A stretch of 11,999 nt of DNA, from IMG/VR virus record IMGVR_UViG_3300031867_001436; one strand, given 5' to 3'. A model generated the notes under the pieces. It was not told where the DNA came from. It ran no database searches and saw only the letters and a list, made by a program, of their open reading frames with translations. Both the position numbers and the translations under genes were made by a program. Positions 1 to 5,102 of this stretch are shown piece by piece (the stretch's first letter is position 1; each line of letters begins with the position of its first letter). Origin of the DNA: a virus.

Positions 1-518
1 AAAGGCTGTTTAGAGAACAGTTTTCCATGACGCTGTGCCATTTTTTTGTATTTATCTGCAGATGCTGCTTTACGAGTATTATCCTCTGCTACTGCATAAG
101 TCACACCAAGCTGTTTAGTAAGAAAACGAGATTCATCATTAATATGATGAATAGTTATTTGATTATCTTCCATAATAAAAGGAGTATAATTTTGATCCAT
201 CTCATGGCCGATACTCCATCCGAAATTGGCCGCAGACATAAGAAGCCCCTGTGAAATTCGTCGGCACATCTTTTGGGTTTTTACTTTATATTTCTTTTTC
301 GCAAGAAAATCCATATTGGTAAAAGGTTCAACTTCTGGAAGTTTAGAATCAATTTCAAAATAAATTGCAGGGTCTCCTGCTTTAAATTCTCCTTTACCAA
401 CAACTACAGTCCAACCGCCAACATGAGCAAGTTCAACTCGATCATATCCTTCAATAGGTTCAATAGCATCAATAAGAGTTATATAACACAGTTCTCTTTC
501 TCCAGCTTTATTAAGCAT
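1..518 (-). CDS. Putative RNA ligase-like protein, N-terminal part; the C-terminus lies beyond the window start. The reading frame is discontinuous (possible pseudogene, split gene or indel).
   Basis: Minus-strand translation from the ATG at 518..516 gives MLNKAGERELCYI; that ATG follows an AAGGGGG Shine-Dalgarno 10 nt upstream. The gene-like frame then shifts by -1 near 480, giving TLIDAIEPIEGYDRVELAHVGGWTVVVGKGEFKAGDPAIYFEIDSKLPEVEPF...KTQKMCRRISQGLL. It shifts by +1 near 240 back to the ATG frame, giving MSAANFGWSIGHEMDQ...FLTKQLGVTYAVAEDN...KLFSKQP, which runs open to position 1. The I.PIEG..VE.A.V.GW.VVV.KGEFK.GD..YFEIDS.LP pattern recalls the N-domain of DRB0094/Rnl5-family RNA ligases; this is from memory and not verified. 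The ORF track omits it because no stop lies inside the window. Confidence 0.4.
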   Translation of the reverse strand, partial: MLNKAGERELCYITLIDAIEPIEGYDRVELAHVGGWTVVVGKGEFKAGDPAIYFEIDSKLPEVEPFTNMDFLAKKKYKVKTQKMCRRISQGLLMSAANFGWSIGHEMDQNYTPFIMEDNQITIHHINDESRFLTKQLGVTYAVAEDNTRKAASADKYKKMAQRHGKLFSKQP

Positions 519-519
519 A

Positions 520-726
520 TTATAGCGACCCCCTTACTTCATCAATAAATTCTTCAATACATTTAATCATCTTATCATCTTCAGTATAAAAGCAATCTCT
601 TTTATATTGATTATAATACCAACTCATAAAATTGATCATAAATTGTCCAAACCGCCAGTCAGGAACATATTTATGAATTCTTTTGAGTTCATCATAAAAA
701 TTATCAAGTCGATTAATATCTCTCAT
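520..726 (-). CDS. hypothetical protein (68 aa)
   Basis: Complete ORF with a TAA stop. An AGAGG Shine-Dalgarno (minus strand) lies upstream of the ATG at 726. The gene is tightly packed against its neighbours; the stop at 522..520 is 1 nt from the next ATG. Confidence 0.6.
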   Translation of the reverse strand: MRDINRLDNFYDELKRIHKYVPDWRFGQFMINFMSWYYNQYKRDCFYTEDDKMIKCIEEFIDEVRGSL

Positions 727-744
727 ATTAAAACCTCTTTCATA

Positions 745-966
745 TTAAGATATTAAAACTTTTTCAGCTTCATCATATGTTAGTTGCAGTCCACATTGAT
801 AATTATCAAAGTATAAAAATAAACCATCATCATCTTGTTCGCAAAAATACCATTCTCCTTTTTTATAAAGATGTGTTGGAGTTTTAATATCTTCTGCTAT
901 GCAAACCATATGATTTTTTAACATTTTACGAAGCAGCTCTATATCAGTAATTTTATCTAAATCCAT
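745..966 (-). CDS. hypothetical protein (73 aa)
   Basis: Complete ORF with a TAA stop. An AAGGAG Shine-Dalgarno lies 8 nt upstream of the ATG at 966 on the minus strand. Confidence 0.6.
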   Translation of the reverse strand: MDLDKITDIELLRKMLKNHMVCIAEDIKTPTHLYKKGEWYFCEQDDDGLFLYFDNYQCGLQLTYDEAEKVLIS

Positions 967-985
967 ATTATTCTCCTTTAAAAAT

Positions 986-1093
986 TTACAAAGGTTTGAT
1001 GAATTCTATTCCACTACCAATCTTGTTCAATTCCTCCACAAAGATATTTTTCATAAAGGTTATAGGGATAAGATCTTGATGCCATAATCTCAT
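986..1093 (-). CDS. small hypothetical ORF (35 aa), MRLWHQDLIPITFMKNIFVEELNKIGSGIEFIKPL
   Basis: Its ATG at 1093..1091 directly abuts the TAA stop (1096..1094) of the upstream gene, an arrangement that suggests translational coupling. It ends in TAA and fills an otherwise unexplained gap between packed minus-strand genes. It is too short to be reported by the ORF track. Confidence 0.3.
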   Translation of the reverse strand: MRLWHQDLIPITFMKNIFVEELNKIGSGIEFIKPL

Positions 1094-1300
1094 TTAATTT
1101 TCTCCAAGTTTTCTATAATATCGTAATTCATCTTTTGCTTTTTCTCTAAATGTATTATATTTTCCTTTGAGATAACTTTCTTTTCCAACCATATACCAAT
1201 CCCAATTATCAACTCCATCTTGATCTAAACAGTTTGCATAATGATATGTTTCAAGTAGATCTAAAAGTTCATCTTCAGAAATAATATAAAAATTATCCAT
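1094..1300 (-). CDS. hypothetical protein (68 aa)
   Basis: Complete ORF with a TAA stop. It lies downstream of a sigma-70-like promoter and an AAAGGGA Shine-Dalgarno-like element. Confidence 0.6.
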   Translation of the reverse strand: MDNFYIISEDELLDLLETYHYANCLDQDGVDNWDWYMVGKESYLKGKYNTFREKAKDELRYYRKLGEN

Positions 1301-1332
1301 TTATTATTTTTTCCCTTTCTTTTTATATATTT

Positions 1333-1361
1333 ATTATATAATAATTTTTATAAAAAAACAA
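1333..1361 (-). promoter_or_regulatory. sigma-70-like promoter (minus strand): -35 TTGTTT, 17-nt spacer, -10 TATAAT
   Basis: -35 at 1361..1356 (overlapping the terminator T-tract), spacer TTTTATAAAAATTATTA, -10 at 1338..1333. It lies upstream of the ATG at 1300. The spacer is near-identical to those of two other promoters in the window. Confidence 0.5.
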
Positions 1362-1385
1362 GGAGGAATTTTTTAATTCCTCCTT
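1350..1385 (-). terminator. Rho-independent terminator for the 1392..3884 gene (minus strand)
   Basis: A perfect 11-bp inverted repeat, AAGGAGGAATT (1360-1370) / AATTCCTCCTT (1375-1385), encloses a 4-nt loop. On the minus strand it is followed by GTTTTTTTAT (1359..1350). It sits 7 nt after the TAA of the MVP-like gene. Confidence 0.7.
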
Positions 1386-3884: not shown

Positions 3885-3917
3885 ATTTTTTTTACCTTTC
3901 TTACTTTTTATATATTT

Positions 3918-3946
3918 ATTATATTAAAATTTTTATTAAAAATCAA
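3918..3946 (-). promoter_or_regulatory. sigma-70-like promoter (minus strand): -35 TTGATT, 17-nt spacer, -10 TATAAT
   Basis: -35 at 3946..3941, spacer TTTAATAAAAATTTTAA, -10 at 3923..3918, about 34 nt upstream of the MVP-like ATG (3884). The downstream UTR AAATATATAAAAAG...AAAGG is repeated upstream of the 1300 gene. Confidence 0.55.
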
Positions 3947-3970
3947 ATATTTTCATTAATAATTTCAATT

Positions 3971-4396
3971 TTAAATGAGATAGGGCATTGCCGCCACATA
4001 TTTATTTTTAAGCTTATCAGTTAGTGTATCAACTTGTGCAAAATGATCGTGTATATCTGCGAGTTTTACAATATATGCAGGCATGTATTTAGGATTACTT
4101 GCAGCCATTCCACGAATTTTTGCAATATAATCATTATAATCGACATCTTTTTCTTTTGTTAAAAGTTGGAGATTTTCTTCAAAATCATAATCAAACCAAG
4201 CCTTTTGTTTAATATTTGTATCTTCATATAAATCATGAGCTAAACCGAGTTGATAAACAAAATTATCCCAATTTGCATAAGGGAGTTTAAAAAGTTTACA
4301 AAGATCTTTTGCTTCATTCGCAACTCTTTTTGCATGTTCCATTGTCTTTTCATCATAATAAAGATAGCATAATTCAAACATTCCTGTATTTGTCAT
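3971..4396 (-). CDS. HD-domain phosphohydrolase-like protein (141 aa)
   Basis: Complete ORF with a TAA stop. A GGAGG Shine-Dalgarno lies 7 nt upstream of the ATG at 4396. The sequence carries an H...HD...D pattern (MEHAKRVANEA ... LGLAHDLYEDT ... ADIHDHF) typical of HD superfamily metal-dependent phosphohydrolases. Confidence 0.65.
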   Translation of the reverse strand: MTNTGMFELCYLYYDEKTMEHAKRVANEAKDLCKLFKLPYANWDNFVYQLGLAHDLYEDTNIKQKAWFDYDFEENLQLLTKEKDVDYNDYIAKIRGMAASNPKYMPAYIVKLADIHDHFAQVDTLTDKLKNKYVAAMPYLI

Positions 4397-4457
4397 AATT
4401 ATTCCTCCTATATTATTTTGAAGACTTTAGATAGTTCTTCTTTATTTTTCTATAAAT

Positions 4458-4486
4458 ATTATATCAAATTTTTTATAAAACATCAA
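4458..4486 (-). promoter_or_regulatory. sigma-70-like promoter (minus strand): -35 TTGATG, 17-nt spacer, -10 TATAAT
   Basis: -35 at 4486..4481, spacer TTTTATAAAAAATTTGA, -10 at 4463..4458, about 60 nt upstream of the HD gene ATG. This is the third member of the conserved promoter family. Confidence 0.45.
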
Positions 4487-4614
4487 GAAATTTTTAAATG
4501 GTCGAAATAAGATAAATAAAAGAGGTAATTTTTTATTATATGTATAAAGAGAAAAAATTTTAATAGGAACTATTGAAAGTTTCTATTATTTTTATATAAC
4601 GGAGGAAAAATATT

Positions 4615-4896
4615 ATGTTGAATGGAAGAGTTGGACAGGTCGTGGGGCCTTTTACTGTGGGATTAGATTTACTTGAAGACAATGCTCCAATTGGGGCTTT
4701 TACACCAGAAACTACAAAACCTGTTTTATATAAATTAGGTATTCAGACTGATGAAGGTACGCAGGTTGAAGTTAATGGAGTTACTATAAAGATCGGGAAA
4801 ACAGGCGTGTATGAACTGGATAATGTCGTGGCAGTGAAGACGCTAGTATTCCCCAATGGGGCGCCCGCAAATACGCTAATTGATTTTGTCTATTAA
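4615..4896 (+). CDS. hypothetical protein (93 aa), first gene of the plus-strand structural block
   Basis: A strong GGAGG Shine-Dalgarno lies 9 nt upstream of the ATG at 4615. The ORF has a TAA stop and no in-frame TAG. Its local GC content is higher than its surroundings. Its position just upstream of the TMP suggests a tail-associated role (inference only). Confidence 0.7.
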   Translation: MLNGRVGQVVGPFTVGLDLLEDNAPIGAFTPETTKPVLYKLGIQTDEGTQVEVNGVTIKIGKTGVYELDNVVAVKTLVFPNGAPANTLIDFVY

Positions 4897-4910
4897 TAAG
4901 GAGGGTAATT

Positions 4911-5102
4911 ATGAGTTCATTTTATGGAAATGGTACAGTTACAATAATAAGGGGAGTTACTCCTGGCGAAATATCGGCAAAAATTTAGGATGCAAAAAAT
5001 CATGTAATTTTTTCAAAAGTTCAACCAACAGTTCAAAAAGCTGGGGATATTTGGGTTGTTATTGATGAATTTGAAGATAAAAAAGAAAATAATAATGGAT
5101 AA
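4911..5102 (+). CDS. hypothetical protein (63 aa under TAG-as-sense), MSSFYGNGTVTIIRGVTPGEISAKI[TAG]DAKNHVIFSKVQPTVQKAGDIWVVIDEFEDKKENNNG
   Basis: An AAGGAGGG Shine-Dalgarno lies 7 nt upstream of the ATG at 4911. One in-frame TAG sits at 4986-4988, and the frame stays open to the TAA at 5100-5102. Under the standard code the product would be only 25 aa. The position fits a small tail-assembly protein. Confidence 0.5.

Follow-up and report, generated by a model that had tools for sequence, protein, structure and literature searches.

The division of a phage genome into genes written in the standard code and genes where a stop codon is translated as an amino acid has been described for gut and rumen phages by Borges et al., who published both the pattern (early genes in the standard code, late genes recoded) and a model for it. 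Their set comprises crAss-like, Lak, Garnet, Amethyst, and Topaz phages with recoded TAG, and Jade, Sapphire, and Agate phages with recoded TGA; the changes observed were only TAG to glutamine (Gln, Q) and TGA to tryptophan, and the leading published model holds that only the glutaminyl- and tryptophanyl-tRNA synthetases (GlnRS and TrpRS) can be hijacked for a change of code. We analysed a stretch of 11,999 nucleotides from the IMG/VR virus record IMGVR_UViG_3300031867_001436 (hereafter the window), in which a tape-measure protein (TMP) gene with many in-frame TAG codons lies next to a set of TAG-free genes on the opposite strand. TAG is a sense codon in the late-type genes of the window. This early/late partition of the code is not new, and the window adds one more family to the published pattern. 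Unlike the Borges phages, however, the window's clade scores TAG as glutamate (Glu, E), and related contigs carry Glu-type tRNAs with the anticodon CUA. Judged from the sequences, Glu is the probable meaning of TAG in this clade, somewhat less securely so for the window itself. The full-text literature searched, whose coverage is incomplete and gives absence of evidence only, contains no report of TAG read as Glu in a phage.

The family resembles the Borges phages in that recoded stops are concentrated in structural and lysis genes, with replication genes variable; in the strong recoding of homing endonucleases (there, an intron endonuclease) and of proteins with transmembrane (TM) domains; in its low GC content; in the loss of the recoded codon as a stop; and in having suppressor tRNAs in standard-code regions and both standard-code and recoded close relatives. 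Another described system is phAss-1, of the proposed Phassvirus, a 136-kb phage from the human gut (Babkin et al. 2023, PMC10607447), in which TAG occurs in 28% of open reading frames (ORFs), including those for TMP, TerL, and portal protein; it has about 36 tRNAs including tRNA(CUA) genes, its recoding of holin and nucleotide-metabolism genes is variable, and its TAG was assigned to Gln from a TerL alignment and tRNAscan-SE. Genome size, tRNA(CUA) genes, and variable recoding are similar in the window's family; as the family of the window itself the phAss-1 group was rejected, no homology having been found. Block-wise use of multiple genetic codes has been described for crAss-like phages (Mgcod; Yutin et al. 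2021), and the window shares with them stretches that fit the standard code and stretches that need TAG read-through. Unlike these blocks, recoded genes of the window's family also stand singly among TAG-free genes (lysin, GIY-YIG); such interspersed genes would be missed by block models. Nuclear UAG is read as Glu in peritrich ciliates and Blastocrithidia, through a tRNA-Glu with a stop-matching anticodon. Unlike these genome-wide eukaryotic codes, the one proposed here would be phage-borne, would be imposed on a host with the standard code, and would affect certain classes of genes only. GenBank phage records contain no close relative by megablast and tblastn (best tblastn matches 36-39% identity); relatives in IMG/VR are many, on contigs of 120-195 kb. 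The source would be a tailed phage of low GC content, some 130-145 kb in size and belonging to an uncultivated family of rumen/gut type.

The read-through of TAG is seen on the plus strand of the window, which carries:

4615-4896, plus strand: p1, a conserved protein of 93 amino acids encoded upstream of TMP; no TAG (its homologue in the related locus L011 has one)
4911-5102, plus strand: p2, a conserved protein of 63 amino acids; a single in-frame TAG at 4986-4988
5134-11997, plus strand: the first 2288 codons of the TMP gene, which continues past the window; 65 TAG in frame

The open frame 5107-11997 on this strand holds 65 TAG and neither TAA nor TGA in 2297 codons; the other two frames hold 116 and 285 TAA plus TGA. 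Under the standard code the plus strand past 5100 splits into at least six fragments of 116-178 codons, each ended by TAG, and reading through TAG joins them into one ORF that leaves the window. The TMP start, ATG at 5134, is preceded by the ribosome-binding site AAGGAG. The product matches Pfam PhageMin_Tail (PF10145, E 1.8e-27, residues 199-404), and its homologues carry the JGI name "TP901 family phage tail tape measure protein". The TAG-bearing TMP frame recurs in independent ENA, JGI, and IMG/VR assemblies. The whole gene is present on a metagenome contig with 94% nucleotide identity to the window (L212): it has 3234 codons, 81 of them TAG, ends in TAA, and precedes a tail gene whose 242 codons include 9 TAG. 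Exact protein matches were limited to contigs of 1.5-6.5 kb, and the metagenome contigs of 94% identity extend the window by only 3.8 kb. In p2 the block conserved in relatives by tblastn (NHVIFSKVQPTVQKAGDIWVVI) lies downstream of the TAG, which must therefore be read through. As evidence that would speak against its reading, the initial annotation had named the use of TAG as a genuine stop in late genes; the stops of 1461 conserved genes are TAA (1157) and TGA (304), with at most 11 candidate TAG stops, and every complete gene of the window is closed by TAA. At about 3230 codons (2582-12286 on the reverse complement of L212; 5134-11997 in the window) the TMP gene predicts a tail near 480 nm. 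As a rule of thumb, tail length is roughly 0.15 nm per TMP residue.

Upstream of these genes, and on the other strand, the window contains:

3-533, minus strand: 5' part of an RNA-ligase-like gene (PF21189, OB domain, E 2.5e-19; phrog_968 RNA ligase, E 8e-24); 0 TAG in 177 codons
520-726, minus strand: small ORF of 68 amino acids; TAG-free, TAA stop, no family match in Pfam and phrog profile searches
745-966, minus strand: small ORF of 73 amino acids; TAG-free, TAA stop
1094-1300, minus strand: small ORF of 68 amino acids; TAG-free, TAA stop, weak resemblance to the T7 gp5.9 RecBCD inhibitor (phrog_6234, E 1.9e-6; PF25708, E 1.2e-3, below the cut-off of that family)
1392-3884, minus strand: MVP-like gene, 830 amino acids, with MVP_shoulder domain (PF11978, E 3e-23); 0 TAG, TAA stop
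3971-4396, minus strand: HD-type phosphohydrolase-like gene, 141 amino acids (phrog_990, E 5.8e-7); TAG-free, TAA stop
4397-4614, no strand: AT-rich divergent intergenic region; the GC skew changes sign here, from -0.12 to +0.34

Over their 1362 codons the six genes of the minus strand are free of TAG, where the TMP rate (2.8% of codons) predicts 38.7 and the probability of finding none is about 9e-18; the count of TAG against CAA plus CAG also differs between these genes and TMP (Fisher p = 6e-7). By itself p1 is uninformative (0 TAG in 94 codons, P = 0.07). The initial annotation had described the minus-strand genes as TAG-free and TAA-ended; the zero count was reproduced exactly, as were the plus-strand counts (p1 0, p2 1, TMP 65), and TAA ends hold for the five complete genes, the C-terminus and stop of gene 3-533 lying outside the window. 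Its assignments of an RNA-ligase-like, an MVP-like, and an HD gene were upheld by matches to an RNA-ligase OB domain, an MVP_shoulder domain, and an HD-type phosphohydrolase. A switch of code at a divergent promoter in 4397-4614, which it had also put forward, is compatible with the counts as to position, although they place it only between 4396 and 4986. The promoter-like hexamers there (4486 to 4458 on the minus strand, 4560-4589 on the plus strand) match at consensus level only, and the 13 sites of the region are no excess over shuffled sequence (8.9 +/- 3.0). The region also is a mosaic joint: the MVP-like protein is 95-97% identical to those of L001-L003 and TMP 27-38%. By tblastn p1 shows 70-78% identity to L001-L003, and across the joint the identity of p1 and p2 to relatives is intermediate (52-78%). 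No tRNA gene was found within the window.

For a wider view the conserved ORFs of 128 loci were clustered and TAG was counted only in regions aligned to other loci. The class densities cover the 84 loci that use TAG as sense and are given as TAG per 1000 codons:

RNA ligase: 0 TAG in 11,960 codons (30 recoded loci)
MVP-like: 0.2 (5 TAG in 22,705 codons)
gyrB: 0.3
gyrA: 1.1
DNA ligase: 1.3
primase-helicase: 3.4
Sak4-like ATPase: 4.7
ThyX: 5.3
PhoH-like: 8.3
endolysins: 10
LAGLIDADG and GIY-YIG endonucleases: 13-23
holin-like: 15-42
tail and baseplate: 18-22
TMP: 20
TM/coiled-coil/GIY-YIG gene: 28

TAG use is a gradient by gene class and not a clean dichotomy. The count of TAG by gene that the initial annotation had proposed, run here across about 200 related IMG/VR loci, shows that density tracks functional class; with the read-through in the window it bears out TAG as a sense codon of late-type genes that is avoided in early-type genes. 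Two of its broader statements call for revision. The sharp dichotomy dissolves, since the replication genes (primase-helicase, Sak4-like ATPase, ThyX, PhoH) of many relatives have 3-8 TAG per 1000 codons; this comes close to TAG in early-module genes, which it had named as contrary evidence, although the correlation with gene class is still strong. Nor does the code boundary coincide with the boundary of strand or module: on the "early" strand of relatives, TAG-free genes flank others that are rich in TAG (endolysin, holin-like, homing endonuclease, and the TM/coiled-coil/GIY-YIG gene). The lysin of L002, L004, L006, and L011 lies on the MVP-gene strand among TAG-free metallophosphatase, RNase H, and gyrase genes and has 7-17 TAG; TAG therefore follows function, not strand. 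Homing endonucleases (L002:19676-20476; clusters 40 and 49, GIY-YIG and LAGLIDADG) are inserted among TAG-free replication genes. Cluster 3 (101 members; L103:15149-16135) lies between DNA ligase and ThyX and encodes a TM helix at the N-terminus, a coiled coil rich in Q and E, and a GIY-YIG domain (T5orf172-like) at the C-terminus; with 21 TAG in the 328 codons of the L103 copy, it ranks with the family's most TAG-dense genes.

We favour Glu as the residue inserted at TAG because three independent lines point to it: the substitution profile, conserved acidic columns, and the type of tRNA. For the profiles each TAG site was weighted once and duplicates were removed; the residues aligned with it were set against those that partner rare synonymous codons. 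In all per-site-weighted analyses GAG/GAA gives the best fit to the TAG profile (LLR, log-likelihood ratio of Glu over Gln):

Near clade (that of the window), 203 TAG sites: E.43, Q.10, D.09, K.07; LLR against the CAG profile +102.7 nats (95% confidence interval 68-134)
Other recoded loci, 598 TAG sites: E.38, Q.11, K.09, D.08; LLR +212 nats
Nine loci L099-L122, 225 TAG sites: Q.39, K.13, E.12; LLR -181 nats

The nine loci score Gln and thus serve as an internal positive control, the method being able to return Gln. In the per-locus table the family falls into two groups, one E-type and one Q-type. The Asp share and low Lys share of the near clade are the behaviour of a Glu codon; they are hard to explain if TAG is Gln, because CAG to TAG would then be silent and should dominate. 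A codon comparison limited to TMP was dropped as uninformative, since these proteins have diverged too far (27-50% identity) and contain too much E, K, and Q.

Conserved columns give the second line. In TMP two TAG codons stand where homologues are mostly acidic:

5812-5814, plus strand: TAG codon of TMP residue 227; of the 98 homologues in alignment A2, 68 have E, 21 D, and 3 Q
6265-6267, plus strand: TAG codon of TMP residue 378; E 49, D 27, T 10 in alignment A2, with Q outside the five commonest residues

Among homologues below 60% identity residue 227 is E in 54, D in 20, and Q in 3; residue 378 is E in 35 and D in 26 sequences of the external alignments. In the lysin, position 36 is that of the GH73 catalytic Glu, and 78 of 79 homologues below 60% identity have E there. 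This position is TAG in L004, L006, and L033; it aligns with the active-site Glu of FlgJ in PDB 2zyc, which is Ala in PDB 3k3t. Lysin position 60 has E 59 and D 13, and all four TAG of the Sak4-like ATPase align with Glu in one relative, the wider homologues being mostly E at three of the four. Log-odds summed over the external alignments are +43 for E and +26 for Q. Counts of Q from databases are inflated because TAG was already translated as Q in close homologues: those of at least 85% identity have Q at every lysin TAG position. The public proteins P0001 and P0241-P0250 of this clade are complete in length and have Q wherever TAG stands, the GH73 catalytic residue included; the gene callers assumed code 15.

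The third line comes from the suppressor tRNAs of relatives. The E-type contig 3300037400_003528, which corresponds to L289 and L062 (E-type partners) and to L134 (helicase 99% identical to that of L011), has a stretch with a 28-tRNA array that includes a tRNA(CUA) and two tRNA-Glu and no tRNA-Gln. The tRNA(CUA) of L289, placed by Rfam at 4920-4992, parses as GGCTCGG/TG/GTCA/AACGGTTTA/AGAC/G/CTGGT/CTCTAAA/ACCAG/AAAT/CGGAG/TTCGATT/CTCCG/GCGGGCT/A; its D-stem GUCA/AGAC, variable loop of four bases, G1, and A73 make up what we take to be the architecture of bacterial tRNA-Glu, and set it apart from the Gln-type suppressors and the tRNA-Gln of the family. Glu-type tRNA(CUA) genes occur on at least eight more contigs of the same sample series (L306, L319, L324, L327, L333, L334, L363, L409), with A73 or C73 as discriminator and all confirmed as tRNA by Rfam; on three of these contigs tRNA-Glu(UUC), tRNA-Glu(CUC), and tRNA(CUA) follow in this order. 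The relatives in which Gln-type CUA tRNAs were detected are all Q-type or distant (L022, L027, L044, L046, L231): L022, L044, and L231, the last being the contig of L122, are Q-type relatives with Gln-like CUA tRNAs, and in the distant relatives L022, L027, L044, and L046 the tRNA(CUA) occupies a constant position within the TAG-free module, flanked by RNase H and gyrB. A pattern scan of the whole collection returned 76 Gln-type tRNA(CUA), about half of them on contigs with homologues of genes of this phage family and several 1-4 kb upstream of an MVP-like gene; in D-stem (GCC/GGC), discriminator (G73), and weak first pair they agree with the family's tRNA-Gln(UUG). With Glu-type CUA tRNAs on E-type contigs and Gln-type CUA tRNAs on Q-type contigs, the two types of tRNA go with the two types of decoding. 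The phage-supplied suppressor postulated by the initial annotation exists as tRNA(CUA) in relatives; in the window's own lineage none was found, and the near loci gave no suppressor tRNA when scanned with Rfam. No release-factor gene turned up in the window's lineage, where no search aimed at release factors was made.

Several features of the tRNA loci were noted besides. The Gln-type tRNA(CUA) of L027 (19670-19768) and L046 (20504-20600) are 97-99 nucleotides long with an insert of 25-30 nucleotides between anticodon stem and T-arm, which is a long extra arm or an intron; ARAGORN misread the copy of L027 as having the four-base anticodon "taaa". The cluster 67 gene beside the Gln-type suppressor was considered as code-change machinery and rejected: no function can be recognised in it, and the adjacent gene is RNase H. 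A phage tmRNA (L319:3426-3737; Rfam 107 bits, tag GNYSYAMAA) lies inside an array with a Glu-type tRNA(CUA); in a stop-recoding phage it may be relevant to ribosomes stalled at TAG. Arrays of tRNAs also contain full-length ROOL RNAs (RF03087) at L319:779-1392 (344 bits) and L289:8713-9309 (279 bits). In tRNA(CUA)-bearing arrays there are tRNAs with a UCA anticodon, opal suppressors labelled tRNA-SeC (L027:3649-3724, L333:2186-2257); some relatives may read a further stop codon as sense.

The first alternative to weigh is that the window belongs to an ordinary code-15 phage, with the same partition of genes, TAG read as Gln through a tRNA-Gln suppressor, and the Glu signal arising from GAG to TAG changes at tolerant surface sites. 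The published TAG-recoded phages (crAss-like, Lak, Garnet, Topaz, phAss-1) are all assigned to Gln, Gln-type CUA tRNAs are present in the wider family, and a number of our own results weigh against Glu. The p2 TAG aligns with Gln in L002; the column signal for Glu is not unanimous, with Gln-rich columns at TAG positions in lysin (199) and TMP (26, 130, 563); and a first pair-weighted count over 49 loci favoured Gln. The window's own TAG sites yield only about ten that can be scored (the 8 with usable partners sum to E 4.2, Q 0.8, K 1.0). Four long near-clade contigs have no match to three suppressor patterns among the matches listed, and about 41 kb of the L011 contig, walked with MVP, gyrA, and helicase queries, contain no tRNA. 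The label Glu-type reflects D-arm, variable loop, and discriminator as judged by eye against the family's tRNAs and general identity rules, and glutaminylation of CUA-anticodon tRNAs is known from E. coli, which makes the tRNA body no proof of the residue charged. As to the partition, "early" and "late" are inferred here from gene function and codon usage. The pair-weighted result was rejected: it repeated a few sites in near-identical contigs, mixed two clades, and lacked a rare-codon control, and per-site weighting, removal of duplicates, and codon-row controls reverse it. A code-15 phage would also have to account for some +103 nats in favour of Glu in the near clade, with Asp at the level of GAG and Lys low, when the sister clade scores Gln by the same method; for TAG at the GH73 catalytic Glu in three phages and on columns that are E or D only; for the inflation of Q counts by earlier translation of TAG as Q; and for the Glu-type CUA tRNAs of E-type relatives. 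We therefore regard it as unlikely, though it is the strongest of the alternatives.

Ambiguous decoding, in which TAG gives a mixture of Glu and Gln, would result from a Glu-bodied CUA tRNA that is partly mischarged by GlnRS or partly transamidated, or from a lineage in transition. The residual Gln share of about 10% exceeds the 3-7% expected from the GAG row, a tRNA-Gln(UUG) and a Glu-type CUA tRNA occur together on L319, L324, and L363, and the E-type and Q-type lineages are closely related. The excess of Gln is, however, also what frequent transitions from CAG to TAG (changes of Q to E) would produce, and at the catalytic and E/D-only columns a high share of Gln would not be tolerated; such a mixture seems improbable to us. 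A host that itself uses TAG as sense, or a pseudogene or assembly artefact, with no phage-driven switch in either case, would account for the bare presence of in-frame TAG and nothing more and is very improbable, as a host-wide code would not spare the 1362 early-gene codons and the RNA ligase family (0 of 11,960 codons), and an artefact agrees neither with the conservation of the TAG-bearing frame in independent ENA, JGI, and IMG/VR assemblies nor with the lack of TAA and TGA over 2297-3234 codons.

With Glu as the preferred reading, the amber codon would seem to have been captured twice within one rumen/gut phage family, as Glu here by a CUA tRNA derived from tRNA-Glu and as Gln in the sister clade, and we hold this history to be a likely one. 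We propose that the genes needed first (MVP-like protein, RNA ligase and tRNA-repair set, HD hydrolase, gyrase, DNA ligase) are kept free of TAG and end in TAA or TGA, which would make them readable by the unmodified host ribosome. Tail genes, and in relatives also those for lysin, holin, and homing endonuclease, have 10-40 TAG per 1000 codons and would be completed only once the phage tRNA(CUA) has accumulated. After the published model, the code could thereby act as a translational timer and a safety catch on late and lytic functions. The suppressor in the window's clade would most likely be a derivative of tRNA-Glu, by which TAG is read as glutamate; in the sister clade a derivative of tRNA-Gln would read it as glutamine.

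The codon usage of the MVP-like gene, which departs strongly from that of the late genes, can be set beside this scheme. The gene avoids A-ending codons (TTA, ATA, CAA, TCA) that usually are served by phage tRNA arrays. In the window its Gln codons are CAG 26 and CAA 1, and in 18 relatives 398 to 34 (92% CAG); it is nearly devoid of TTA, ATA, and TCA, with CTT in place of TTA, and its GC content is 0.39-0.40, against about 0.30. In TMP, TTA makes up 69% of Leu codons, ATA 32% of Ile codons, and CAA 86% of the standard Gln codons. The codons shunned by the MVP-like gene are those served by the tRNA arrays of relatives, a bias that, we infer, would fit its translation before phage tRNAs become available. 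The gene looks as if it may be tuned to the tRNAs of the host, and its expression may be very high or very early.

If TAG indeed is Glu in this clade, viruses and bacterial systems alike would have their first case of TAG as a Glu codon, and the capture of stop codons by phages would not be bound to one synthetase. Pipelines that translate TAG as Q would then mistranslate about 2-3% of the residues of late proteins, catalytic glutamates included, and annotation, structure prediction, and lysin engineering from database entries would begin with wrong residues. The two clades would provide a natural lineage pair for studying a change of codon meaning, and their tRNAs new natural UAG suppressors for genetic-code engineering.

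Some further observations concern the surroundings of the MVP-like gene. Homologues of its product among GenBank phages are limited to three huge phages (LR756500, LR756501, and LR756503; 36-37% identity), and no other was found in the phage collection. In relatives a flotillin/SPFH (Band_7) protein is encoded next to it (L004:7283-8872; L017:7856-9457). Beside the MVP gene in L002, L004, and L006 (12.5-16 kb) there is a tRNA-repair-like set of RNA ligase, an AAA_33 kinase-like protein, and two metallophosphatases, which in some relatives is joined by a Thg1-like tRNA-His guanylyltransferase (L013:8146-9150).

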